Below are positions 4,537-49,835 of a DNA stretch of 51,169 nucleotides, one piece after another. Each line of letters starts with the position of its first letter. Within the stretch, counting starts at the first letter, position 1. The translations under genes were made by a program, and so were the position numbers. The notes under the pieces were generated by a model. The model worked only from the letters and a program-made list of their open reading frames with translations, was not told the DNA's origin and did not search any database. Origin of the DNA: a virus (taxonomy: Duplodnaviria; Heunggongvirae; Uroviricota; Caudoviricetes). Where the stretch lies: the IMG/VR virus record IMGVR_UViG_2526164628_000012, one strand, 5' to 3'.

Positions 4537-4589
4537 GGGCGGCAGAGCAGTCACGGAGTAAAACTGATACCGCCAAACGTCACCAGAAA
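4537..4589 (-). ncRNA. dicF: DicF small regulatory RNA (ftsZ-targeting)
   Basis: Reverse complement reads TTTCTGGTGACGTTTGGCGGTATCAGTTTTACTCCGTGACTGCTCTGCCGCCC followed by a T-run, matching recalled DicF; located directly upstream of dicB. Confidence 0.85.
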
Positions 4590-5725: not shown

Positions 5726-5797
5726 GTTGACCTCATTTCCCCTTAACGCCGGGGTAGCGGAACAAAAGTAAGCGGCTCGTCAGAACCGTATTGATAT

Positions 5798-7369
5798 TTA
5801 CTGAGAGCTCAGATCAACTTTCCAGGGCAACAGATCGCGTACCCGGTTTGCCGGCCAGTCCTGGATATGTTCAATGACGTAGCGCAGCCACTTTTCTGGC
5901 TCCACATTGTTCAGACGGCATGTGCCGATCAGCGAGTACAACACCGCCGCATGTTCACCACCGCTGTCGGAACCCGCGAACATCCAGTTTTTCCGGCCTA
6001 CGGCCACTCCCCGTAAGGCGTTCTCTGCGATGTTGTTGTCGATTTCCACCCAGCCATTACTGCAGTACACGTTCAGTGCATCCCACTGTTTCAGCAGGTA
6101 TGCGAACGCTTTTGCCGTATCTGAGTGACGCGACAGTGTTTTCATCTGTTGCTGTATCCAGTCATACAGTGACTGCATCAGTGGCGCGGCTCTGGTTTTT
6201 CTTGCCGCCAGACGCTGTTCTGCTGAACAGCCCCGGACCTCTGCCTCGATGGCATACAGTTCACCGATACGCTGCAGGGCTTCCGTGGTGATGTCGGTGG
6301 GCGCTCTTGCATGCACATCGTGGATTTTTCTCCGGGCATGAGCCATACACGCGGCTTCCGTTATTCTGCCGGATTCGTATAACGCCCGGTAACCACCGTA
6401 AGCATCGGCCTGAAGCACACCGCTGTAACCGGCCAGGTGATTTTGTGGATGGATACCTTTCCGGTCCGGACTGTACGCGAACCAGACCGCCGGGGGCATC
6501 TGTGAACCGGCGTTACGGTCATCACGGACGTAGACCCACAGCCGGGCTGTCCGGGTTTTACCGCTGCCCGGCTCCTGGACCGGGACGGGGATATCATCAG
6601 CATGGACTTTACCGGGCATCAGCACATACTGGCGCAGGACGTCATACAGCGGCTCCAGTAGTTCAGCAACGGCACCTGTCCAGCGCCCCAGTGTGGCACG
6701 GCTCAGCTCCACACCCTGACGGCGGTATATCTCTGACTGGCGGTATAACGGCAGATGGTCTGCATATTTTCCGGTGACGACATGGGCCAGGAGCCCCGCT
6801 CCGGCATAACTGCGTGCAATGGGTTTTGAAGGTACTGGTGCCTGCACGATATGGTCGCACCGACAACAGGCCAGTTTCGGACGTTGTGTTTCGATAACCT
6901 TAAAGGCGCTGCTGATAAGCTCCAGTTGCTCTGACACATCACATCCCAGAGAACTGAGTTCACCACCACAGGCAGGACAGCATTCCTCTTCCGGCCGGAT
7001 AACCCGGGTTTCACGGGGAAGTGAGGCCGGTAACGGTTTACGGGCTGAAGACTGGCGCAGGGCGGATGGCAGTACCGGGTCATATTGCTCACCCAGCGTT
7101 TCCGCCATTTCTTCCTGAAGTGCGCTGATTCGCTCCTGTGCTTCCTGTATCTGCCGTTCGGTTTTTGCACGAAGTTTTTCTGAGCTTTTACCGAACTGCA
7201 TACGTTGCAGTTTCGCAACCAGCGCCTTCAGCCGGTTGATTTCGGAAGCATAAGCCGCCACCCGCTGTGAGAGCAGGCGGTTGTATTCAGCCATCTGGCG
7301 TATGGTGTCCTGTTGCGTCTGCAACAGTGCCCGCAGGCGGGCGTTCTCATGAGCAAGTGAGGTGTCCAT
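5798..7369 (-). CDS. IS66-family transposase (orf3/TnpC), 523 aa
   Basis: Characteristic IS66 transposase length and arrangement; identical protein in second copy. Confidence 0.85.
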
Positions 7370-7388
7370 ATCCTCACTTTACAACGGG

Positions 7389-7736
7389 TTATATGCGGAT
7401 TCCAGCGCGTTCCGTTCGTTTCGGGTGCTTCCAGTTGATACCTTCAAGAAGCATGGATAACTGAGCCGGAGTAAGGTGCACCTTGCCGTCACGGGTGACT
7501 GGCCAGACGAAGCGGCCCCGCTCCAGGCGTTTGGTGAAGAGGCACAGTCCGTCACTGTCAGCCCACAACACTTTTATCTGGTCACCCCGGCGTCCGCGGA
7601 AGATGAACAGGTGTCCGGAGAACGGGTCATCCTTCAGGACGTTCTGAACTTTTGATGCCAGGCCGTTAAAGCCATTTCGCATATCGGTGATACCTGCAAC
7701 CAGCCAGATACGCGAACCTGCAGGGAGAGATATCAT
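7389..7736 (-). CDS. IS66-family Orf2 (TnpB), 115 aa
   Basis: Middle ORF of IS66 three-gene arrangement. Confidence 0.8.
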   Translation of the reverse strand: MISLPAGSRIWLVAGITDMRNGFNGLASKVQNVLKDDPFSGHLFIFRGRRGDQIKVLWADSDGLCLFTKRLERGRFVWPVTRDGKVHLTPAQLSMLLEGINWKHPKRTERAGIRI

Positions 7737-8413
7737 CAGTGGCTGCTCCCTTTTATTTCGCGGATAAGTGTCTGTAATAACGCCGGCGTCAGTTTACCTT
7801 TAAGCCTGAGAGTTCCGGCCGGCAGAACCAGCTCACAACACAGACTGTCGGACGGTGTATTTATCTGCTCTGGTTCCTGTGCGGGGGCCGGGATTTTATT
7901 ATCCGGCTCCGGCGTTAACGTCACGGGAAGCAGTGCCGGCATATTTTTTCCGGAAGGCAGCAGGCCACCTTTCCGGTATTGATGGCGCCAGTTGAAGAGC
8001 AGGTTATCGTTGATTCCGTTTTCCCGGGCGATCTGCGCCACACAGGCTCCGGGCTGCAGTGACTGCTCCACTAAGGCGATTTTAAACTCATAAGGGAAGT
8101 TGGGCCGCCGGGGACGTTTTTTTACCACGGGGGCTTCGGATATAACGGTGCTTTCAGGACGTACGACTGGTACCGTGGAAAATTGTCCGTAAAGGCAGGC
8201 ATCAAGTTCCTGCTCCGACATGCCTGCGGGCAAAGGCCACGAAAGGCCAGCTCTCCGAAAGCGCACGAACATACTACAAACTGTTGATTTTGGTACACCC
8301 AGGCGACGCCCGGCCACAACCCGGGGTAAATGTTCTTCAAAGTGAAGACGTAAAGCTTCAGTGATCCAGGTCCGGTGTTTCATACGATAGTGTCCATTAA
8401 AAATGATGGACAT
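7736..8413 (-). CDS. IS66-family Orf1 (TnpA), 225 aa
   Basis: First ORF of IS66 arrangement; overlaps orf2 start. Confidence 0.8.
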   Translation of the reverse strand: MSIIFNGHYRMKHRTWITEALRLHFEEHLPRVVAGRRLGVPKSTVCSMFVRFRRAGLSWPLPAGMSEQELDACLYGQFSTVPVVRPESTVISEAPVVKKRPRRPNFPYEFKIALVEQSLQPGACVAQIARENGINDNLLFNWRHQYRKGGLLPSGKNMPALLPVTLTPEPDNKIPAPAQEPEQINTPSDSLCCELVLPAGTLRLKGKLTPALLQTLIREIKGSSH

Positions 8414-8618
8414 TATTTTTGTAGAGCCGGAGGAAACAGACCAGACGGTTTAAATGAGCCGGTTACGAACAAAAACCTGCTGCATAGTTATTAAAGTTGA
8501 ACCCTGCCGTCATGTTCTTACGCCTCGGGCTGGCTACTTAACCCCTGACCACTGCCTGGTAACTCGAAGTATTGCCCTGCATTCTGTGGGGCGGGGGGGG
8601 TTGGTATGAAAAGAAGGA

Positions 8619-14046: not shown

Positions 14047-14257
14047 AAACGGTTTGCGGGAAAAGGAGAGTTAAGTAGAATTGCAGCGGGTGCTTGAGGC
14101 TATCTGTCTCAGGCATGAACACCAAAAGGCAGATAGAGAAAAGCCCCAGTTAACATTACGCGTCCGGCAAGACGCTTAACATTAATCTGAGGCCATATCT
14201 ATGCTCTACACACGTAGGTTAGCCTCTTACGTGCCGAAAGGCAAGGAGAAGCAGGCT

Positions 14258-14413
14258 ATGAAGCAGCAAAAGGCGATGCTAATCGCCCTGATCGTCATCT
14301 GTTTAACCGTCATTGTGACGGCACTGGTAACGAGGAAAGACCTCTGCGAGGTACGAATCCGAACCGGCCAGACGGAGGTCGCTGTCTTCACAGCTTACGA
14401 ACCTGAGGAGTAA
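14258..14413 (+). CDS. hok: Hok/Gef-family type I toxin, 51 aa
   Basis: MKQQKAMLIALIVICLTVIVTALVTRKDLCEVRIRTGQTEVAVFTAYEPEE matches the Hok family (HokD/RelF-like); terminator follows. Confidence 0.8.
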   Translation: MKQQKAMLIALIVICLTVIVTALVTRKDLCEVRIRTGQTEVAVFTAYEPEE

Positions 14414-16287: not shown

Positions 16288-16830
16288 ATGATATATCCGG
16301 AAATTACAGGCAAAAGCGGCGAGCATTTACGTCTAAAAACGCTGGAAGCCGTCTGGATCCAGGGGAAATTACGGATGTGGGGGCGTTGGTCGTATATAGG
16401 TGGTGGCAAACCAGGAAATATGTTCAATCAGTTGCTGGCATCCAAAAAACTGACAAAAACCGCGGTCAATGAAGCCCTGCGTAGAATCAGGGAGTCAGGG
16501 ATTGATAAACCAGAGCTGGAAGCATTCTTGCGAGAGATGATCGCTGGCAGACAGAAGAGCTGGTTGTCTCACTGTACTGATGCAGAGGCGTTACGCATTG
16601 ATGGGGTGATAAGTAAAGCGCTTGCACGTTATCCTGGATTGATTGATATCCTGCGGCAAAGGTACGAAGGGCGGGGGATGAGTAAACGCAAAATGGCTGA
16701 ATTGTTGAATGAGGTTCACCCTGAGTGGTGCTATGCAACATGCCGCAATCGTATAGATATGTGGCTGAGAATAGCTGAGTTTATTCTGTATCCACTGATG
16801 CGAGATGCATTTTCTTTTACTGACGCTTAG
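16288..16830 (+). CDS. Putative late-gene antiterminator (Q-like), about 180 aa
   Basis: Position after rusA and before a strong terminator, tRNAs and lysis genes; MWGRWS motif resembles phage 21/933W-type Q; track start GTG 16276 possible. Confidence 0.45.
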   Translation: MIYPEITGKSGEHLRLKTLEAVWIQGKLRMWGRWSYIGGGKPGNMFNQLLASKKLTKTAVNEALRRIRESGIDKPELEAFLREMIAGRQKSWLSHCTDAEALRIDGVISKALARYPGLIDILRQRYEGRGMSKRKMAELLNEVHPEWCYATCRNRIDMWLRIAEFILYPLMRDAFSFTDA

Positions 16831-16995
16831 AATCTGGAGGGCGTTTGTTGTTGCACGAAGAGGATTTTTGGCTGGTAGTAAGGTTTGTGCAGTTTTAGAA
16901 AAAAAGCTTGTATTTTTAGCCATAAACTGTTTCAATCCAGCTACGCTTCGCAAAGCTGTACCGCGAGGCGAATAGCAGACATGGACACCTGAAAG

Positions 16996-17019
16996 AACCC
17001 GCTTTATGCGGGTTTTTTT
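16996..17019 (+). terminator. Rho-independent terminator (candidate Q-modified tR-prime)
   Basis: AACCCGC TTTAT GCGGGTT hairpin followed by T7. Confidence 0.6.
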
Positions 17020-17142
17020 ATGCCTGAAAAACGGCACAGAACATTAAACGCGCTGGTAGTTGTGAATACTGGTCTTTCAGCTTGCTGGCTTTTTCGACAA
17101 GAGGTATTGGTATGTCACGTTAACCAGAAAAGGGAAAAAGGC

Positions 17143-17340
17143 ATGCTAAAACAGCAGGATATGACCGAAACCGCCAGAGTGGTGTTTAATGAATTAAGCG
17201 TCACCGAACCGGCGACCGTCGGGGAAATTGCGCAGAATACTTACCTTTCACGCGAACGCTGCCAGTTAATACTGACTCAGCTTGTTATGGCGGGTCTGGC
17301 AGATTATCAGTTCGGTTGTTACAGACGCCTTCCGCAGTGA
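17143..17340 (+). CDS. Hypothetical small winged-helix-like protein, 65 aa
   Basis: Internal Met of track ORF 17020-17340 after the terminator. Confidence 0.35.
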   Translation: MLKQQDMTETARVVFNELSVTEPATVGEIAQNTYLSRERCQLILTQLVMAGLADYQFGCYRRLPQ

Positions 17341-18131
17341 AGGCTTTTTAATTTGTGGTAATGGGCGGCTGGTGGGTGTTAGCGGCACCTGCCAGCCATC
17401 TGCTCATGCGTTGGGGTCACAAGCAAACCTCAGGCCCATCTGCTTTGCGCAAAAGCGGTATGAGCCTATCAGAGAAGTGCTTATTGATCTATGATTAATA
17501 CTGTAAAAATATCCAGTTGTGAGTTAATCAACGCTGATTGCCTGGAGTTTATCCAGACCTTACCGGAAAACTCTGTCGATCTGATAGTCACAGACCCGCC
17601 ATACTTTAAAGTGAAGCCCGAGGGCTGGGATAACCAGTGGGAGGGCGACGATGATTACCTGAAATGGCTGGACCAGTGTCTGGCGCAGTTCTGGCGGGTA
17701 CTGAAGCCTGCCGGAAGTCTTTACCTGTTCTGTGGTCATCGCCTGGCATCTGACACCGAAATCATGATGCGTGAGCGCTTTAATGTGCTGAACCACATTA
17801 TCTGGGCGAAGCCGTCCGGACGCTGGAACGGGTGCAATAAGGAAAGTCTGCGGGCGTATTTTCCGGCAACAGAGCGCATTCTGTTTGCAGAACATTATCA
17901 GGGACCGTATCGCCCGAAAGATGATGGCTATGTGGAGCAGGGGCGCGAGCTAAAACAGCACGTCATGGCCCCGCTGATTTCTTACTTTCGTGATGCGCGT
18001 AAATCACTGGGAATAACGTCAAAACAGATAGCGGAAGCCACCGGAAAGAAAAACATGGCTTCGCACTGGTTTGGTGCTGAACCGCCCCGGGAATCCTGGA
18101 GACTAAACTCCCTGAGAAAGAGGTAAACAGG

Positions 18132-18458
18132 ATGACTAAAAATACTCGTTTTTCCCCCGAAGTCCGTCAGAGGGCGATTCGTATGGTTCTGGAAAGTCAG
18201 GGCGAATATGACTCACAGTGGGCGGCAATTTGTTCCATTGCCCCAAAGATTGACTGTACACCGGAGACTCTGCGTGTCTGGGTACGCCAGCATGAGCGGG
18301 ATACCGGAGGCGGTGATGGCGGGCTCACCACCGCTGAACGTCAGCGTCTGAAAGAGCTGGAACGTGAAAATCGTGAACTGCGCCGCAGTAACGATATCCT
18401 TCGCCAGGCTTCCGCTTATTTTGCGAAGGCGGAGTTCGACCGCCTCTGGAAAAAGTGA
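18132..18458 (+). CDS. IS3-family transposase OrfA, 108 aa
   Basis: HTH/leucine-zipper OrfA typical of IS3 family; recalled as IS629 OrfA. Confidence 0.8.
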
Positions 18459-19345
18459 TGCCACTGCTGGATAAGCTGCGTAAGCTGTACGGGGTCGGAC
18501 CGGTATGCAGTGAACTACATATTGCCCCGTCAACGTATTACCACTGTCAGCAACAGCGACATCATCCTGATAAACGCAGTGCCCGTGCGCAGCGCGATGA
18601 CTGGCTGAAGAAAGAGATACTGCGCGTATACGATGGGAATCATCAGGTATACGGTGTGCGTAAAGTCTGGCGTCAGTTGTTACGGGAAGGAATCAGGGTA
18701 GCCAGATGTACAGTGGCGCGCCTCATGGCGGTTATGGGACTTGCCGGTGTTCTCCGGGGTAAAAAGGTCCGCACTACCGTCAGCCGGAAAGCCGTTGCCG
18801 CAGGCGACCGCGTAAACCGTCAGTTTGTGGCAGAACGTCCTGACCAGTTGTGGGTGGCTGATTTTACTTACGTCAGCACATGGCAGGGGGTCGTCTATGT
18901 GGCGTTCATCATTGATGTGTTTGCCGGATACATCGTGGGGTGGCGGGTCTCATCGTCTATGGAAACGACATTCGTGCTGGATGCTCTGGAGCAGGCGTTA
19001 TGGGCCCGTCGACCGTCCGGCACAGTCCATCACAGTGATAAAGGTTCTCAGTATGTATCGCTGGCCTACACACAGCGGCTTAAGGAAGCCGGATTACTGG
19101 CATCAACAGGAAGTACTGGTGACTCGTATGACAACGCGATGGCGGAGAGCATCAATGGCCTTTACAAAGCGGAGGTAATACACCGTAAGAGCTGGAAAAA
19201 CCGGACAGAAGTGGAACTGGCCACACTCACGTGGGTGGACTGGTATAACAATCGACGATTGCTGGAAAGGCTGGGCCATATCCCACCGGCAGAAGCAGAA
19301 AAAGCTTATTATGCTTCCATCGGAAACGATGATCTGGCAGCCTGA
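18455..19345 (+). CDS. IS3-family transposase OrfB (DDE), 296 aa
   Basis: DDE integrase-like catalytic ORF overlapping orfA. Confidence 0.8.
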
Positions 19346-19903
19346 GTTCACAGATAAAACACTCTCCAGGAAACCCGGGGCGGTTCAGTGCCAGTCAGTG
19401 GCAGTTACCGAACGAGGGTGATTACAATAAATTGCAGGCGTTGTTTGCGCGTGTTGCGGCAGAAAAACATCAGCGCGGGGAACTGGAAAAGCCACACCAC
19501 CAGCTGGTCAGCACATACAGTGAGCTGAACCGGCAGTATACGGAACTGCTGAGTGAATATAAAAATTTGCGGCGGTATTTCGGTGTGACGGCGCAGGTTC
19601 CGTACACCGATGTCTGGACGCATAAACCGGTGCAGTACTATCCAGGGAAACATCCGTGCGAAAAACCGGCAGAAATGCTGCAGCAGATAATCAACGCGAG
19701 CAGTCGTCCGGGAGACCTGGTTGCAGATTTTTTTATGGGTTCAGGTTCAACGGTAAAAGCGGCGATGGCACTGGGGCGTTGTGCGATTGGTGTTGAGCTG
19801 GAGACCGGACGTTTTGAACAGACAGTCAGGGAAGTTCAGGATTTAATCGTTTGAAACGGATGAGATTGCAGAATTAATTACGCACCATTATTATTCTGCT
19901 CCC

Positions 19904-19979
19904 GGCCCTTTAGCTCAGTGGTGAGAGCGAGCGACTCATAATCGCCAGGTCGCTGGTTCAAATCCAGCAAGGGCCACCA
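19904..19979 (+). tRNA. tRNA with CAU anticodon (Ile2/Met-type, ileZ-like)
   Basis: Cloverleaf folded by hand: acceptor GGCCCTT/AAGGGCC, anticodon loop CTCATAA, CCA end. Confidence 0.8.
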
Positions 19980-19986
19980 TCACATA

Positions 19987-20063
19987 CCGCCATTAGCTCA
20001 TCAGGATAGAGCGCCAGCCTTCGAAGCTGGTTGCGCGGGGTTCGAGTCCTCGATGGCGGTCCA
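19987..20063 (+). tRNA. tRNA-Arg (anticodon UCG)
   Basis: Acceptor CCGCCAT/ATGGCGG, anticodon stem CCAGC/GCTGG with loop CTTCGAA, TTCGAGT T-loop, CCA end. Confidence 0.75.
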
Positions 20064-20076
20064 TTATCTGTACCCT

Positions 20077-20153
20077 GCGTTGTTAGCTCAGCCGGACAGA
20101 GCAATTGCCTTCTAAGCAATCGGTCACTGGTTCGAATCCAGTACAACGCGCCA
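20077..20153 (+). tRNA. tRNA-Arg (anticodon UCU)
   Basis: Acceptor GCGTTGT/ACAACGC, anticodon loop CTTCTAA, TTCGAAT T-loop, CCA end. Confidence 0.8.
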
Positions 20154-20328
20154 CGCTTATTTTTCCAGGCTCGCTTCGGCGGGCCTTTTTCATATCCGCG
20201 CCACGCCCGGCGCACATCAAAAAACCACAGAGCCTTTCAGGGGTGAGCTTACGGGATGGTCAGTGTGACTTTCTCTGTGGGCTGGTCACCCCCGGGCGCA
20301 GGCTCACCCACTAAAAGGAAAAGTCACG

Positions 20329-20754
20329 ATGTTTGGTATTTTCAAAAAGAAAACCCGCAAGGTCATTACCGAGGTGAAGAAGATGGAGAACCGTGACGCA
20401 GTGGAGGCGACCGTCTGGGGCGCGTACTCCATTGCATACGCTGACGGCACCTGTGACGCGAAAGAAATCGCGGTACTGGAAAAAACCATTGCAGCACTTC
20501 CTGTCTTTGCGCCGTTCTCCGGTGAGATTGCACAAATGAGTGCAAATATCCGCGCCCGTTATGAAGCGTCGCCGCGTTCTGCCAATGCCGAAGCTCTTCG
20601 TCAGCTGGCTGATGTTGCCGGTACTGATGATGCAGTTAATGTGCTGTGCCTGTGTCTGGATATCGCTGACCAGGACGGTATCGGTCAGGAAGAAGAAGCG
20701 CAACTGAAGAAAATTGCGCAGGCGCTGCAGTTGCCGCTGGAGCAGTACCTGTGA
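20329..20754 (+). CDS. TerB-like domain protein, 141 aa
   Basis: Pattern resembles tellurite-resistance TerB family (paired DG/acidic helices); good RBS AAGGAAAAG; sits where stx lies in Stx phages. Confidence 0.4.
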   Translation: MFGIFKKKTRKVITEVKKMENRDAVEATVWGAYSIAYADGTCDAKEIAVLEKTIAALPVFAPFSGEIAQMSANIRARYEASPRSANAEALRQLADVAGTDDAVNVLCLCLDIADQDGIGQEEEAQLKKIAQALQLPLEQYL

Positions 20755-20903
20755 AAAGTGCGCGCCTTGTGCTGGCTGTCATCCTGTTGTTTCTGGTAGT
20801 GGTGGTTGATTTCACCGGACGACTGATGTCGGTGCTGGCAGATGGTGTGCTGGTGGCGATGGCGCTGGTCGTGCTCCGGCCTTTACTGCGTAAATCTGAA
20901 TAA
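20751..20903 (+). CDS. Putative small membrane peptide, 50 aa (GTG start)
   Basis: GTGA overlap with TerB-like stop; very hydrophobic (LVLAVILLFLVVVVDF...VLVAMALVVL); followed by two hairpin terminators. Confidence 0.3.
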   Translation: MKSARLVLAVILLFLVVVVDFTGRLMSVLADGVLVAMALVVLRPLLRKSE

Positions 20904-20913
20904 CATCACACAA

Positions 20914-20976
20914 AAGGCATCTGCGGATGCCTTTGACGGGGTGTTTTTTACGGGTCGCTGGTGGCCCTTTTTTATT
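20914..20976 (+). terminator. Tandem hairpin terminators
   Basis: AAGGCATC TGCG GATGCCTT hairpin and GGGTCGCTGGTGGCCC followed by T-run. Confidence 0.5.
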
Positions 20977-20989
20977 TTCAGGAGGAAGT

Positions 20990-21382
20990 ATGTCTGAACC
21001 CTTATCCGGTTCCGGCACGGCTGCGGCGCTGGGTGGCGCGACGGTATTCGGGCTGTTTACCGGGATGGATTTCGGGATTGTGTTTGGCGCGTTCGCCGGG
21101 GCGTTATTTGTGGCAACGATGCCGCAGTCACTTTCAGTCTGGCGCGTGGTGGCACATTTTCTGGTGTCGTTTATTGTCGGCGTGCTGGGAGCGCGTGTGC
21201 TGTCAGCCTGGATTGCATCAAAAACAGGGTATGACGGTACATCAGCAGATGCGCTTTGCGCGGTGCTGGTCTCGGTGGTGTCGGTGAAGATTCTCTCGTT
21301 CATCCACCAGCAGGATATTGCATCGCTGGTGTCCGGTGTGTTCTCCCGCCTGCGGGGTGGAGGAGGCGGCAATGTTAAGTAA
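20990..21382 (+). CDS. Putative holin, 130 aa
   Basis: Multi-TM Gly-rich membrane protein at start of lysis cassette; strong RBS GGAGGAAG. Confidence 0.5.
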   Translation: MSEPLSGSGTAAALGGATVFGLFTGMDFGIVFGAFAGALFVATMPQSLSVWRVVAHFLVSFIVGVLGARVLSAWIASKTGYDGTSADALCAVLVSVVSVKILSFIHQQDIASLVSGVFSRLRGGGGGNVK

Positions 21383-21647
21383 CCTTCCCGAATTGCTGAA
21401 TGTGGCGTTATGCATGGTTATCGTGCTGACGCTCTTTTTTTATCGTCGCCGTGATTCCAGACATAAACCGCTGGTGTCATGGCTGGCCTGGCTGCTGATG
21501 CTGCTGTATGCCTTTGCGCCCCTCAGCTATCTGTGTGGTCGCCCGTTAGCAACGGGCTGGCTGGAAGTGTTTTTTAATCTGCTGTTCTGCGTGCTGGTGA
21601 TACGCGCACGCGGGAACGTCACAAAAATCTTTCCATTGTTGAGGTGA
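21372..21647 (+). CDS. Second lysis-cassette membrane protein (holin/antiholin-like), 91 aa
   Basis: Three hydrophobic segments; RBS AGGAGG; overlaps holin stop and endolysin start. Confidence 0.45.
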   Translation: MLSNLPELLNVALCMVIVLTLFFYRRRDSRHKPLVSWLAWLLMLLYAFAPLSYLCGRPLATGWLEVFFNLLFCVLVIRARGNVTKIFPLLR

Positions 21648-22027
21648 ATATGCCGGGTAAATTCAGATTCAGCCGTCGCAGTGAAAAAAATCTGGAGGGT
21701 GTCAAACCACAGCTGGTTGCTGTAGTTCGCCGTGCGCTGGAGCTGACGGAGGTTGATTTCGGTATTACGGAAGGCCTGCGCAGTAAGTATCGCCAGAAAC
21801 AGCTGGTTGCGGAAGGGAAAAGCCAGACCATGAACAGCCGCCACCTGACCGGTGATGCGGTGGATGTTGTGGCCTACATTGGCAGTCAGGTGTCATGGGA
21901 GTGGCCTCTGTACGAGAAAATCGCACAGGCATTTAAGCAGGCTGCCGCAGAGCTGGGGATCGCTATCGAATGGGGCGGGGACTGGAAAACGCTGAAAGAC
22001 GGACCTCACTTTCAGCTGAAGCGATAA
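21644..22027 (+). CDS. Endolysin, peptidase M15 family (L-alanyl-D-glutamate peptidase-like), 127 aa
   Basis: Resembles T5-type M15 endolysin (VKPQLVAVVRRALEL...HLTGDAVDV...GGDW). Confidence 0.75.
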   Translation: MNMPGKFRFSRRSEKNLEGVKPQLVAVVRRALELTEVDFGITEGLRSKYRQKQLVAEGKSQTMNSRHLTGDAVDVVAYIGSQVSWEWPLYEKIAQAFKQAAAELGIAIEWGGDWKTLKDGPHFQLKR

Positions 22028-22035
22028 GTAAAACA

Positions 22036-22069
22036 AAACCCCGGCTGGGGGAACAGTCCGGGGTTTTTA
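22036..22069 (+). terminator. Rho-independent terminator after endolysin
   Basis: AAACCCCGG...CCGGGGTTTTT hairpin. Confidence 0.6.
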
Positions 22070-22159
22070 GTTTTCACGTCAAAGGGGAAATTGTGATTAG
22101 TGAGTAGGGAGAAAATCCTCGTGGGAAAGTATAAAAGATTCTTTTTGAGGTTGTCCATT

Positions 22160-22273
22160 ATGAAAGGTATTGAAATGGAAACTCCCGCGAGCCTTGATTT
22201 GACAAGGGCTGCGGCCTTTGCAATTCGCCTTGTGGCGGTCGCTGTTCTGATTTGGGCTGTGCGTTGGTGGTGA
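22160..22273 (+). CDS. Putative 37-aa membrane peptide
   Basis: Hand-found ORF MKGIEMETPASLDLTRAAAFAIRLVAVAVLIWAVRWW; stop immediately precedes next ATG. Confidence 0.2.
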   Translation: MKGIEMETPASLDLTRAAAFAIRLVAVAVLIWAVRWW

Positions 22274-31970: not shown

Positions 31971-32162
31971 AACATACTGAATTCCGTGCAGCCGTACTGG
32001 ATGCACTGGAGAAGCATGACACCGGGGCGACGTTTTTTGATGGTCGCCCCGCTGTTTTTGATGAGGCGGATTTTCCGGCAGTTGCCGTTTATCTCACCGG
32101 CGCTGAATACACGGGCGAAGAGCTGGACAGCGGTAAGCGGCTCGTCAGAACCGTATTGATAT

Positions 32163-33734
32163 TTACTGAGAGCTCAGATCAACTTTCCAGGGCAACAGAT
32201 CGCGTACCCGGTTTGCCGGCCAGTCCTGGATATGTTCAATGACGTAGCGCAGCCACTTTTCTGGCTCCACATTGTTCAGACGGCATGTGCCGATCAGCGA
32301 GTACAACACCGCCGCATGTTCACCACCGCTGTCGGAACCCGCGAACATCCAGTTTTTCCGGCCTACGGCCACTCCCCGTAAGGCGTTCTCTGCGATGTTG
32401 TTGTCGATTTCCACCCAGCCATTACTGCAGTACACGTTCAGTGCATCCCACTGTTTCAGCAGGTATGCGAACGCTTTTGCCGTATCTGAGTGACGCGACA
32501 GTGTTTTCATCTGTTGCTGTATCCAGTCATACAGTGACTGCATCAGTGGCGCGGCTCGGGTTTTTCTTGCCGCCAGACGCTGTTCTGCTGAACAGCCCCG
32601 GACCTCTGCCTCGATGGCATACAGTTCACCGATACGCTGCAGGGCTTCCGTGGTGATGTCGGTGGGCGCTCTTGCATGCACATCGTGGATTTTTCTCCGG
32701 GCATGAGCCATACACGCGGCTTCCGTTATTCTGCCGGATTCGTATAACGCCCGGTAACCACCGTAAGCATCGGCCTGAAGCACACCGCTGTAACCGGCCA
32801 GGTGATTTTGTGGATGGATACCTTTCCGGTCCGGACTGTACGCGAACCAGACCGCCGGGGGCATCTGTGAACCGGCGTTACGGTCATCACGGACGTAGAC
32901 CCACAGCCGGGCTGTCCGGGTTTTACCGCTGCCCGGCTCCTGGACCGGGACGGGGATATCATCAGCATGGACTTTACCGGGCATCAGCACATACTGGCGC
33001 AGGACGTCATACAGCGGCTCCAGTAGTTCAGCAACGGCACCTGTCCAGCGCCCCAGTGTGGCACGGCTCAGCTCCACACCCTGACGGCGGTATATCTCTG
33101 ACTGGCGGTATAACGGCAGATGGTCTGCATATTTTCCGGTGACGACATGGGCCAGGAGCCCCGCTCCGGCATAACTGCGTGCAATGGGTTTTGAAGGTAC
33201 TGGTGCCTGCACGATATGGTCGCACCGACAACAGGCCAGTTTCGGACGTTGTGTTTCGATAACCTTAAAGGCGCTGCTGATAAGCTCCAGTTGCTCTGAC
33301 ACATCACATCCCAGAGAACTGAGTTCACCACCACAGGCAGGACAGCATTCCTCTTCCGGCCGGATAACCCGGGTTTCACGGGGAAGTGAGGCCGGTAACG
33401 GTTTACGGGCTGAAGACTGGCGCAGGGCGGATGGCAGTACCGGGTCATATTGCTCACCCAGCGTTTCCGCCATTTCTTCCTGAAGTGCGCTGATTCGCTC
33501 CTGTGCTTCCTGTATCTGCCGTTCGGTTTTTGCACGAAGTTTTTCTGAGCTTTTACCGAACTGCATACGTTGCAGTTTCGCAACCAGCGCCTTCAGCCGG
33601 TTGATTTCGGAAGCATAAGCCGCCACCCGCTGTGAGAGCAGGCGGTTGTATTCAGCCATCTGGCGTATGGTGTCCTGTTGCGTCTGCAACAGTGCCCGCA
33701 GGCGGGCGTTCTCATGAGCAAGTGAGGTGTCCAT
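32163..33734 (-). CDS. IS66-family transposase (orf3/TnpC), 523 aa
   Basis: Identical protein to copy 1. Confidence 0.85.
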
Positions 33735-33753
33735 ATCCTCACTTTACAACGGG

Positions 33754-34101
33754 TTATATGCGGATTCCAGCGCGTTCCGTTCGTTTCGGGTGCTTCCAGT
33801 TGATACCTTCAAGAAGCATGGATAACTGAGCCGGAGTAAGGTGCACCTTGCCGTCACGGGTGACTGGCCAGACGAAGCGGCCCCGCTCCAGGCGTTTGGT
33901 GAAGAGGCACAGTCCGTCACTGTCAGCCCACAACACTTTTATCTGGTCACCCCGGCGTCCGCGGAAGATGAACAGGTGTCCGGAGAACGGGTCATCCTTC
34001 AGGACGTTCTGAACTTTTGATGCCAGGCCGTTAAAGCCATTTCGCATATCGGTGATACCTGCAACCAGCCAGATACGCGAACCTGCAGGGAGAGATATCA
34101 T
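33754..34101 (-). CDS. IS66-family Orf2 (TnpB), 115 aa
   Basis: Identical to copy 1. Confidence 0.8.
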   Translation of the reverse strand: MISLPAGSRIWLVAGITDMRNGFNGLASKVQNVLKDDPFSGHLFIFRGRRGDQIKVLWADSDGLCLFTKRLERGRFVWPVTRDGKVHLTPAQLSMLLEGINWKHPKRTERAGIRI

Positions 34102-34778
34102 CAGTGGCTGCTCCCTTTTATTTCGCGGATAAGTGTCTGTAATAACGCCGGCGTCAGTTTACCTTTAAGCCTGAGAGTTCCGGCCGGCAGAACCAGCTCA
34201 CAACACAGACTGTCGGACGGTGTATTTATCTGCTCTGGTTCCTGTGCGGGGGCCGGGATTTTATTATCCGGCTCCGGCGTTAACGTCACGGGAAGCAGTG
34301 CCGGCATATTTTTTCCGGAAGGCAGCAGGCCACCTTTCCGGTATTGATGGCGCCAGTTGAAGAGCAGGTTATCGTTGATTCCGTTTTCCCGGGCGATCTG
34401 CGCCACACAGGCTCCGGGCTGCAGTGACTGCTCCACTAAGGCGATTTTAAACTCATAAGGGAAGTTGGGCCGCCGGGGACGTTTTTTTACCACGGGGGCT
34501 TCGGATATAACGGTGCTTTCAGGACGTACGACTGGTACCGTGGAAAATTGTCCGTAAAGGCAGGCATCAAGTTCCTGCTCCGACATGCCTGCGGGCAAAG
34601 GCCACGAAAGGCCAGCTCTCCGAAAGCGCACGAACATACTACAAACTGTTGATTTTGGTACACCCAGGCGACGCCCGGCCACAACCCGGGGTAAATGTTC
34701 TTCAAAGTGAAGACGTAAAGCTTCAGTGATCCAGGTCCGGTGTTTCATACGATAGTGTCCATTAAAAATGATGGACAT
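34101..34778 (-). CDS. IS66-family Orf1 (TnpA), 225 aa
   Basis: Identical to copy 1. Confidence 0.8.
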   Translation of the reverse strand: MSIIFNGHYRMKHRTWITEALRLHFEEHLPRVVAGRRLGVPKSTVCSMFVRFRRAGLSWPLPAGMSEQELDACLYGQFSTVPVVRPESTVISEAPVVKKRPRRPNFPYEFKIALVEQSLQPGACVAQIARENGINDNLLFNWRHQYRKGGLLPSGKNMPALLPVTLTPEPDNKIPAPAQEPEQINTPSDSLCCELVLPAGTLRLKGKLTPALLQTLIREIKGSSH

Positions 34779-35076
34779 TATTTTTGTAGAGCCGGAGGAA
34801 ACAGACCAGACGGTTTAAATGAGCCGGTTACGGACAGCGATACCTGGCAGGCGGAGCTGCATATCGAAGTTTTCCTGCCTGCTCAGGTGCCGGATTCAGA
34901 GCTGGATGCGTGGATGGAGTCCCGGATTTATCCGGTGATGAGCGATATCCCGGCACTGTCAGATTTGATCACCAGTATGGTGGCCAGCGGCTATGACTAC
35001 CGGCGCGACGATGATGCGGGCCTGTGGAGTTCAGCCGATCTGACTTATGTCATTACCTATGAAATGTGAGGACGCT

Positions 35077-49251: not shown

Positions 49252-49835
49252 TGGCATTCAGAATGAGTGAACAAGCACGGACCATAAAAATTTATAATCT
49301 GCTGGCCGGAACTAATGAATTTATTGGTGAAGGTGACGCATATATTCCGCCTCATACAGGTCTGCCAGCAAACAGTACCGATATTGCACCACCAGATATT
49401 CCTGCTGGCTTTGTGGCTGTTTTCAACAGTGATGAGGCATCGTGGCATCTCGTTGAAGACCATCGGGGTAAAACGGTTTATGACGTAGCGTCAGGGGACG
49501 AGTTATTTATTTCTGAACTCGGTCCGTTACCGGAAAATGTTACCTGGTTATCGCCGGAAGGGGAGTTTCAGAAGTGGAACGGCACAGCCTGGGTGAAGGA
49601 TACGGAAGCAGAAAAACTGTTCCGGATCCGGGAGGCGGAAGAAACAAAAAACAACCTGATGCAGGTAGCCAGTGAGCATATTGCGCCGCTTCAGGATGCT
49701 GCAGATCTGGAAATTGCAACGGAGGAAGAAACCTCATTGCTGGAAGCCTGGAAAAAGTATCGGGTGTTGCTGAACCGTGTTGATACATCAACTGCACCTG
49801 ATATTGAGTGGCCTACGAACCCTGTCAGGGAGTAA
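49251..49835 (+). CDS. tfa: Tail fibre assembly protein (Tfa), 194 aa
   Basis: Immediately follows stf with ATGA-type overlap; lambda Tfa-like. Confidence 0.85.

Follow-up and report, generated by a model that had tools for sequence, protein, structure and literature searches.

The 51,169-nt window analysed here (the whole stretch of IMG/VR virus record IMGVR_UViG_2526164628_000012) is a lambdoid prophage of enterotoxigenic Escherichia coli (ETEC), and the region described below is 100% identical in strain TW10590 and >99% identical in B7A and other ETEC strains. Between a tRNA cluster and the lysis genes, the interval 20160-20980 carries a TerB-family gene, tciA, an overlapping gene for a small membrane peptide, tciB, and a structured leader RNA. 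By its identity and architecture it is, with near certainty, a self-contained mobile accessory (moron-type) cassette. Its parts are as follows.

20167-20191, + strand: post-tRNA terminator-like hairpin GGCUCGCUUCGGCGGGCC followed by a U run (hairpin proper 20167-20186; -14.6 kcal/mol, z -3.1)
20190-20328, + strand: structured 5' leader of tciA (139 nt, ending at the ATG)
20329-20754, + strand: tciA, 141-aa TerB-family protein with a basic N-terminus (MFGIFKKKTRK) and two ADG-x5-E motifs
20751-20903, + strand: tciB, 50-aa DUF3927 peptide; its GTG start codon lies in GTGA, where it overlaps the tciA stop
20913-20934, + strand: terminator-like hairpin 1 after tciB, with an outer stem (20902-20945) and a U run
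20952-20967, + strand: terminator-like hairpin 2 after tciB, then UUUUUUAUUUU (U run)

An earlier note on this DNA had read the last two features as a pair of closing hairpin terminators, and the 81-nt stretch that holds both indeed folds at -28.2 kcal/mol (z = -3.6). The hairpin at 20167-20186 and the leader at 20190-20328 were absent from that note. The former separates the last tRNA from the cassette and, by alignment, occurs upstream of stx in Shiga toxin (Stx) phages as well. Positions 20155-20197, which include this hairpin, weakly resemble the 3' terminator end of the small RNA (sRNA) STnc100 (17.5 bits, E 0.27).

The assignment of the first gene product to the TerB family, proposed earlier, is borne out. 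tciA has its own Shine-Dalgarno (SD) sequence, AAAGGA at 20314-20319, 9 nt ahead of the ATG, and its product exceeds the PF05099 TerB cut-off (32.7 bits against 24.4, E 1e-7), matches phrog_632 'tellurite resistance' end to end (1e-63) and is 85% identical to TciA of phage P1, likewise 141 aa. A profile of nine phage homologues retrieves the TerB structure PDB 2JXU (E 1.6e-14, positions 14-137 of 143). This required the profile, as a single-sequence PDB search with TciA missed 2JXU and returned only spurious polynucleotide phosphorylase matches. Within the two ADG-x5-E motifs, D39, G40 and E46, and A113, I118 and E122, are invariant across nine distant phage homologues. The AlphaFold2 model is an all-alpha, six-helix bundle (pLDDT 85.7, pTM 0.81) for which Foldseek returns a sole confident match, the TerB-clan structure 2H5N (probability 1.0, TM-score ~0.5, E 0.015). 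The ratio of non-synonymous to synonymous polymorphism (pN/pS) of tciA is 0.066, indicating strong purifying selection. None of terC, terD/E, terZ or terA is co-located, the neighbours being tRNAs, tciB and holins; TciA is thus a stand-alone phage TerB and no member of a ter operon.

The second gene, previously described as a GTGA-coupled, highly hydrophobic 50-aa peptide, was also read correctly. TciB scores 54.2 bits against PF13064 DUF3927 (cut-off 25), matches phrog_1470 'TciB-like' and is ~50% identical to P1 TciB. Its grand average of hydropathy is 1.50, and the hydropathy profile shows two hydrophobic segments joined by DFTGR, with basic residues at both ends; because both ends are basic, a two-helix hairpin with both termini in the cytoplasm (N-in/C-in) is predicted. 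The conserved motif is DFTG..MSVLADGVLV....(W/R)PLL+, with a conserved Asp inside the second helix. The best 120 of 903 clusters matching DUF3927 are all stand-alone proteins of 50-90 aa. A 196-aa TerB+DUF3927 fusion (P0060) proved to be a single-contig frameshift of a P1 allele and is no evidence for a natural fusion.

Conservation of the peptide reading frame, which the earlier note had named as a check, is clear. Of 80 related IMG/VR loci, 78 have the open reading frame (ORF) undisrupted and beginning at the same overlapping GTG; its pN/pS is 0.40, consistent with moderate selection, against 0.79 and 0.93 in the two other frames; and the peptide is recognisable in very distant phages. On these three grounds tciB is no chance ORF. 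At residue 43 (20876-20881), most alleles from E. coli lambdoid prophages, the window's among them, have Arg (or Leu) in place of the Trp of an otherwise conserved WP motif, which the P1, P7, N4-like, Klebsiella and Pseudomonas versions retain.

Judged by homology, the pair is the tciA/tciB module of phage P1 and is not new. The earlier note could not tell whether the pair had been described. It is already named, as tciA/tciB in the P1 record NC_005856 (annotation of Lobocka et al. 2004, where tciA-tciB-tciC lie in the ban operon), as PHROG 632/1470, and in RefSeq, which labels the window pair 'tellurite resistance TerB family protein' and 'DUF3927 family protein'; a conserved phage gene is one of the outcomes that the note had listed as refuting it, although the pair is not a functionally characterised one. 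The literature on tciA/tciB yielded homology-based names, one CRISPR interference (CRISPRi) 'non-essential' call and one transcript-level mention, and no functional characterisation was found there. In the CRISPRi screen of P1, tciA, tciB and tciC are all non-essential for plaque formation (PMC10695390), and in P1-like phage-plasmids the Tci operon is treated as a hypervariable accessory region (PMC9603915). For tciC, a 35-aa membrane peptide in P1, tblastn gave no credible match in the window (best E 0.19, elsewhere).

The two genes travel together. A TerB gene followed by a DUF3927-like peptide of 46-60 aa occurs in P1, P7, Evi, LMessi, the N4-like phages FSL SP-058 and As2, the 246-kb jumbo Erwinia phage Asesino and the Pseudomonas phage phiK7B1, with spacing from a 4-nt overlap to a 34-nt gap. 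TciB-family peptides are conserved beside TerB in nine phage lineages, the pairing is found in 80 of 80 IMG/VR loci, and a search from the peptide side likewise places TerB directly upstream in Klebsiella prophages, a metagenomic contig and Salmonella phage-plasmids. The TerB + DUF3927 pair is therefore an obligate unit across very different temperate and virulent phages. P1 and P7 share near-identical TciB C-terminal halves, whereas their TciA proteins differ (85% and 33% identity, respectively, to the window protein); recombination therefore takes place within the module. Carriage by virulent N4-like, jumbo Erwinia and Pseudomonas (Nickievirus) phages, together with the position of the pair in the C1-repressed early ban operon of P1, argues for a role in lytic growth rather than in protection of the lysogen.

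Two observations on the surroundings of the pair are added here. TerB/TciB pairs lie beside phage tRNA genes in unrelated phages, namely the window prophage (tRNAs at 19904-20153), P1, P7, Erwinia jumbo phages and phiK7B1 (loci L002, L085, L088, L089 and L382); this may be no more than a common placement in accessory regions. On Salmonella phage-plasmid contigs (L098-L100, 2567-4456), the order is TerB, DUF3927, a 34-aa ORF in a TciC-like position, and then a Tad2-like gene (PF11195). Tad2 is a known anti-Thoeris family, and this neighbour hints at an anti-defence neighbourhood.

The earlier note had placed the pair in the slot that stxAB occupies in Stx phages, and comparison of the tRNA-to-holin interval bears this out. 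In the Stx2e phage phiP27 the order is a small winged helix-turn-helix gene, a DNA methyltransferase gene, ileZ and argO, stx2eA/B, a PF16931 holin, a further holin and an M15 endolysin, and the lysis-cassette proteins are 85-97% identical to those of the window. DNA homology between the two stops at 20202 and restarts at 20809, inside tciB. phiP27 keeps the last ~95 nt of tciB, with a stop codon and a frameshift, and the first downstream hairpin; this decayed 3' remnant (4415-4570 of L091, NC_003356) lies directly after stx2eB and overlaps the opposite-strand hypothetical gene L27. Because homology resumes inside tciB and the remnant sits behind stx2eB, stx2e has displaced tciA and the 5' third of tciB in the phiP27 lineage. 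Stx2a phages have the tRNAs and the post-tRNA hairpin in common with the window and carry other cargo. In the SerU-LTIIb phage (L092, 1122-4395), the same slot holds a duplicated copy of holin1 and two extra tRNA pairs, and the LT-IIb genes lie past the endolysin.

The limits of the cassette are visible across the 80 loci. On the left, homology ends at 20160-20167 or 20188, on either side of the hairpin (52 loci); on the right, it ends at ~20858, inside tciB, giving an alternative C-terminus, or at 20980, past the second terminator (5 loci with alternative lysis cassettes). As read from these homology breaks, the hairpins are the left and right recombination boundaries of the cassette. The pair lies upstream of at least three different lysis cassettes in lambdoid prophages. 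The swap of cargo between shared backbone genes (phiP27, Stx2a phages) and the downstream intrinsic terminators are those of a moron in the Hendrix/Juhala sense.

The leader of tciA is better conserved than the protein downstream of it: in alignments with phage Evi and the jumbo phage Asesino, TciA is only 40-43% identical. An upstream ORF from the ATG at 20256 (46 aa) was considered as the cause of this conservation and rejected, the ATG being absent in Klebsiella, LMessi and other copies. In Rfam 15, the window, apart from its tRNAs, gave no structured-leader match at gathering thresholds, and 20195-20328 gave no match even at E <= 10. A covariance model (R1) was built from 25 copies; the window copy scores 149.6 bits. 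The model finds the leader upstream of tciA in 94 of the lambdoid loci tested, in seven further copies elsewhere in those loci, in Erwinia jumbo phages (55-80 bits) and ahead of non-TerB genes (31-67 bits). These genes encode antirepressor-type proteins just past the lysis cassette (ANT/KilAC, KilA-N+ORF11CD3 and P22_AR_N+ORF11CD3), three proteins without a Pfam family, a 102-aa membrane protein and a 50-aa Cys-rich peptide. Second copies in the same prophages lie at L004 5777-5917, L043 6092-6233, L116 13778-13922, L133 8849-8993, L104 7085-7226, L135 14205-14346 and L138 3694-3815, most of them past the lysis cassette and before KilA-N, ANT or P22_AR-type antirepressor-like genes or unknown genes.

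Each inspected leader copy extends to the start codon and is preceded by a terminator hairpin with a U run; the one exception, in a jumbo phage, follows the end of a tRNA gene instead. BLAST with the leader alone gives matches at 2658 places, spread over 1230 of 5426 complete E. coli genomes with at most six in any one of them; RefSeq has no feature annotated under the leader among the matches listed. A pattern scan of genome contigs gave chance matches (0 of 100 loci checked were true), and a full-text literature search for characteristic leader sequence strings returned nothing relevant. By covariance model and alignment, the motif is absent upstream of TerB in P1, P7 and the Salmonella phage-plasmid and absent from stx loci. 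P1, P7 and the Salmonella phage-plasmid share another conserved region of ~190 nt upstream of TerB (L002 2310-2500, L085 1010-1200, L098 2380-2566), unrelated to the leader motif.

The structural elements of the window copy are the following.

20198-20202 / 20209-20213, + strand: P0 hairpin, GCGCC / GGCGC
20204-20208 / 20294-20298, + strand: P1, the P0 loop CGCCC with GGGCG
20225-20232 / 20273-20280, + strand: P2, CCACAGAG / CUCUGUGG
20233-20237 / 20314-20318, + strand: anti-SD:SD helix, CCUUU / AAAGG
20241-20250 / 20300-20309, + strand: helix b:b', GGGUGAGCUU / AGGCUCACCC
20258-20270, + strand: P3, a variable hairpin

Covariation was counted on 25 diverse leader copies, with 500 shuffles and slid helices as controls. 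Both sides change in 17 of 32 pairs, against 8.9 +/- 1.6 in the shuffles (none of the 500 reaches 17) and at most 6 in the slid helices, and the covariation score is 0.270 versus 0.134. P0, P1 and P2 are paired in 92%, 98% and 96%, respectively, and a 34-sequence set gives the same picture. All five P0 pairs covary, though P0 lies outside the model used for aligning. P1 occurs in at least seven versions (CGCUC/GAGCG, CGCCC/GGGCG, CGUAC/GUACG, CGCAC/GUGCG, GACAC/GUGUC, UCUCAC/GUGAGA and UGCCCA/UGGGCA) and P0 in at least five, such that long-range helices 50-110 nt apart are maintained by compensatory changes. Helix b:b' averages 8.8 contiguous base pairs in a register-free test, against 5.4 with shuffled partners, and its extensions covary (GCCA/UGGC, GCCUUA/UAAGGC, GCCCUG/CAGGGU and others). 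A nested RNAalifold model (P1+P2+P3) is kept in part only, as P0, b:b' and the anti-SD helix cross it. The leader is very probably a functional structured RNA.

These helices could hold the ribosome-binding site closed. An SD-occluded fold consists of P0 and a long hairpin made of the anti-SD:SD helix, b:b' and a further helix, c:c'. In constrained folding it is the nested minimum-free-energy (MFE) structure in three of five representatives and lies within 0.3 kcal/mol of the MFE in a fourth; in the window copy it lies 3.3 kcal/mol above. In this fold the 3' strand of P1 forms a bulge of 5-6 nt and the 5' strand sits in the P0 loop, so that P1 would be a loop-to-bulge pseudoknot able to clamp the SD-occluded state. 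P2 joins the 5' flank of the long hairpin to its apical region and crosses it. The CCUUU:AAAGG pairing is present in 100% of sequences, is invariant and extends the covarying b:b' helix. That the leader is an SD-gating element we regard as an evenly balanced proposition; slightly short of even is the chance that this ~135-nt RNA founds a class of its own among phage regulatory RNAs, namely a 'cargo gate' that is multi-pseudoknotted, occludes the SD and moves together with accessory genes.

The wider setting of the cassette is given by the following features, of which the tRNAs were called by ARAGORN, the lysis genes by Pfam/PHROG, and the Q-type gene from the RefSeq annotation of the identical region in TW10590.

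16296-17020, + strand: upstream context with a Q-type antiterminator gene (DUF1133) that ends at 16830
16990-17020, + strand: strong tR'-like terminator, 160 nt past the Q-type gene (-18.2 kcal/mol, z -5.5)
19904-19979, + strand: tRNA 1, CAT anticodon (Met by ARAGORN, Ile by RefSeq; ileZ-type; also Rfam tRNA)
19987-20063, + strand: tRNA 2, Arg-TCG (also Rfam tRNA)
20077-20153, + strand: tRNA 3, Arg-TCT (also Rfam tRNA)
20990-21382, + strand: PF16931 holin
21372-21647, + strand: PF05449 holin
21644-22027, + strand: M15 endolysin

The tRNA cluster (19904-20153) is 91-95% identical to ileZ-argN-argO of Stx2 phages and is the left flank common to the window prophage and Stx phages. In Klebsiella prophages the cassette follows directly after Q and its terminator. 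Given that position, and the Q-type gene and tR'-like terminator upstream in the window, Q-dependent late expression is a reasonable reading; as judged from gene order and the terminator chain, Q-dependence of the cassette is plausible. A consensus (sigma-70-like) scan of 16500-22200 found no + strand promoter, and ~10 nt lie between the upstream terminator and the leader.

Several other elements were noted in the prophage. An IS3-family insertion sequence (IS629-like; 18076-19381, with orfA at 18132-18458, orfB at 18455-19345 and an ALIL frameshift pseudoknot at 18413-18529) interrupts the DNA methyltransferase gene (17491-18126 / 19432-19854) between Q and the tRNAs; this gene is whole in TW10590. 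An IS66-family element of the three-ORF TnpA/B/C type is present in two direct copies (5768-8471 and 32133-34836) of 2704 bp, 99.9% identical and 26.4 kb apart. Other Rfam matches are DicF (4537-4588, - strand), sok (14088-14263, + strand, beside hokD) and IS009 RNA (49594-49792, + strand).

Taken together, the reading we favour, and consider rather better supported than not, is that of a mobile late-operon cargo cassette with leader-gated translation, whose products TciA and TciB act at the membrane and are no toxin. Under this scheme, the cassette (terminator hairpin, structured leader of ~139 nt, tciA, tciB and two terminators, in that order) would belong to a Q-controlled late operon, and on induction the Q-modified RNA polymerase would read through the flanking terminators. 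The leader would keep the tciA ribosome-binding site closed until opened by co-transcriptional formation of P2 or by another factor, and tciB would be translated by coupling, at a fixed ratio to tciA. TciB would insert N-in/C-in into the inner membrane, and TciA would work with it at the cytoplasmic face, by analogy with amphitropic chromosomal TerB and its partner TerC: chromosomal TerB interacts with the membrane protein TerC (PMC11003894), and TerB is called membrane-associated or amphitropic in the defence-system literature. In an infected cell the pair could then alter the membrane or ion state, for instance to exclude superinfecting phages or colicins or to buffer stress. A membrane function, argued from this analogy, is tentative; candidate phenotypes are phage or colicin exclusion, stress buffering and counter-defence.

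A number of observations weigh against this scheme. P2 crosses the long hairpin, so that the leader may be either one multi-pseudoknotted fold or a two-state switch with P2 as the SD-open state. The anti-SD:SD pairs never vary, and covariation thus provides no evidence for or against this pairing. The nested MFE of the window copy reaches only z = -1.8 against shuffles, and because many of the leader sequences are phylogenetically related, there were fewer independent events than the cell counts of the covariation analysis suggest. The tciAB module can do without the leader, since in P1, P7 and the Salmonella phage-plasmid it is preceded by a different one. The IS3-family element now stands between Q and the cassette in the window, where Q-dependence rests on gene order. 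Finally, some anti-phage systems combine TerB domains with membrane effectors, which leaves some room for a defence role.

For the gene pair, three other roles have to be weighed. The earlier note had suggested a membrane-acting toxin or abortive-infection module, in which TciB would be a toxic peptide and TciA its sensor or antidote, killing the host or blocking phages. A small hydrophobic peptide translationally coupled to a soluble partner would suit this, as would an SD-occluding leader ahead of a dangerous product, and three validated defence systems, Bunzi, Shango and Dionysus, contain TerB domains; in Dionysus, TerB works with a membrane pore-former according to the literature. Nothing positive was found for it, however: PADLOC-DB v2 profile hidden Markov models (HMMs), including those of Bunzi and Shango, match neither protein (0 families at E <= 1), strictly lytic N4-like, jumbo Erwinia and Pseudomonas Nickievirus phages carry the pair, where defence of a lysogen makes little sense, the operons are lytic-phase (late in the window, C1-repressed ban operon in P1), P1 knock-down leaves plaque formation unaffected (PMC10695390), and the strong purifying selection on tciA is that of a normal protein. 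We consider this reading very unlikely and favour it least. The same breadth of virulent and temperate carriers, and the lytic expression indicated by the P1 ban operon and the Klebsiella post-Q position, would fit a counter-defence decoy, in which the phage TerB and its partner mimic or titrate host TerB-based membrane surveillance (the Phi phenotype of ter operons, Shango, Bunzi, Dionysus) and so enable replication. The Tad2-like anti-defence gene adjoining the Salmonella phage-plasmid module and the hypervariable accessory region of P1-like elements (PMC9603915) point the same way; but the Tad2-like adjacency is seen in one lineage only, chromosomal TerB is only a distant relative of TciA (profile E 1.6e-14), and the TerB components in PADLOC are unrelated to it at the HMM level, which leaves a decoy unlikely. 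A lysis-timing accessory, with TciB tethered or regulated by TciA and modulating the adjacent holins in an antiholin-like or holin-priming manner, is suggested by the lambdoid position directly upstream of three different holin/endolysin cassettes and by the small two-transmembrane topology and charged C-tail that TciB would have in common with class II holins. The pair lies away from lysis genes in P1, P7, N4-like, jumbo and Pseudomonas phages, TciB has no holin family match in Pfam or PHROG, and, the interval from Q to the holins being a generic hot-spot for cargo (stx, tRNAs), position alone would place the pair beside the lysis genes; such a role seems quite improbable.

For the leader, the conserved stretch could instead be no functional RNA at all and reflect a DNA-level recombination boundary, a promoter or operator, or recent horizontal spread. 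It does sit exactly at module junctions, contains short palindromes, has an unremarkable thermodynamic z-score and is known mostly from closely related copies. Compensatory double changes in long-range helices (at least seven versions of P1 and five of P0) are hard to reconcile with a DNA feature, as are the far lower values of the slid and shuffled controls, the motif's retention across E. coli prophages and Erwinia jumbo phages despite a TerB identity of only ~40%, and the + strand scan, which found no sigma-70-like promoter; we find this alternative very doubtful. A true riboswitch, whose core would bind a small molecule or ion (for example, a divalent metal linked to TerB biology) and thereby open or close the SD helix, is given a slim chance. 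Highly conserved unpaired blocks (AGAGYCUUUCAG, GGCUG) lie between the covarying helices, the SD would lie within a helix and the pseudoknot architecture resembles that of SD-sequestering riboswitches. A metabolite riboswitch would not normally precede such unrelated cargo (TerB, KilA-N/ANT/P22_AR antirepressor-like proteins, unknown proteins and a small membrane protein), for which a general signal of phage or host state is the better match.

As a gene pair, tciA/tciB is nothing out of the ordinary, names and annotations being already in place; its universal pairing marks it, however, as a functional two-protein unit of lytic growth, at a time when TerB domains are appearing in anti-phage systems. 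What is new is the phiP27 tciB remnant, the universality of the TerB-DUF3927 pair and the widespread, unannotated pseudoknotted leader of diverse prophage cargo. The dead piece of tciB in phiP27 illustrates concretely how a Shiga-toxin cassette took the place of older cargo in a lambdoid backbone, at terminator-hairpin junctions. The leader is found in about a quarter of complete E. coli genomes. If it gates prophage cargo, it would constitute a widespread regulatory layer and a new structured RNA family, covering lysogenic-conversion and induction genes, antirepressor-type genes included, in prophages of enterohaemorrhagic (EHEC), enteropathogenic (EPEC) and enterotoxigenic E. coli. A cargo gate would then operate in lambdoid prophages of pathogenic E. 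coli and Klebsiella and in Erwinia jumbo phages, switching translation on only in a specific phage or host state, and its trigger would be a ligand, a protein or a co-transcriptional folding timer.

The cassette can be compared with several known systems. TciA and the TerB of terZABCDE (PDB 2JXU) belong to the same PF05099 family, with a nearly full-length profile alignment, two ADG-x5-E repeats and an all-helical fold, and the proposed likeness extends to membrane association and a membrane partner. The chromosomal protein, however, works with the nine-transmembrane-segment TerC among other ter genes, whereas phage TciA has a 50-aa peptide partner and no TerC, TerD, TerZ or TerA neighbours. 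Bunzi, Shango and Dionysus likewise combine a TerB-like domain, for which 'membrane surveillance' has been proposed, with membrane components; they reside in defence islands with helicase/ATPase or pore-forming partners, whereas the Tci pair is encoded by phages, virulent ones included, has a 50-aa hairpin partner and matches no PADLOC HMM. The closest relative, the P1 Tci module, has a DUF3927 TciB gene directly downstream of TciA with an overlapping start, adjoining tRNA genes and a lytic-phase operon, as in the window. It differs in its 5' leader, which is its own and lacks the window motif, and in its placement in the C1-controlled early ban operon, in contrast to the late operon between Q/tRNAs and holins.

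The stx cassettes and morons between Q/tRNAs and lysis genes (phiP27 stx2e, Stx2a) share with the window the same flanks, slot, post-tRNA hairpin and terminator-bounded insert; theirs is toxin cargo with the leader motif absent, whereas the window has a TerB/membrane-peptide pair and a structured leader, with no promoter found in the scan. Among RNAs of the same Q-to-holin neighbourhood are the prophage Pas sRNAs (STnc100/PasD, PasA/PasC), and a preprint reports TerB among the genes conserved near PasA/PasC (bioRxiv 10.64898/2026.05.13.724894). PasA/PasC are placed between a sialate esterase and the holin, not upstream of TerB, and are set apart from the leader by description only; STnc100 does not match the leader itself and shows only the weak resemblance to the hairpin at 20167-20186. 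In mechanism, the nearest parallels are SD-sequestering pseudoknotted leaders, such as the preQ1-II and SAM-II riboswitches, and RNA thermometers, with which the window leader, itself conserved, covarying and pseudoknotted, would share a base-paired Shine-Dalgarno sequence directly upstream of the start codon. It has no Rfam 15 match and is distinguished from them by its length of ~135 nt, its at least five helices and the heterogeneous phage cargo that it precedes.

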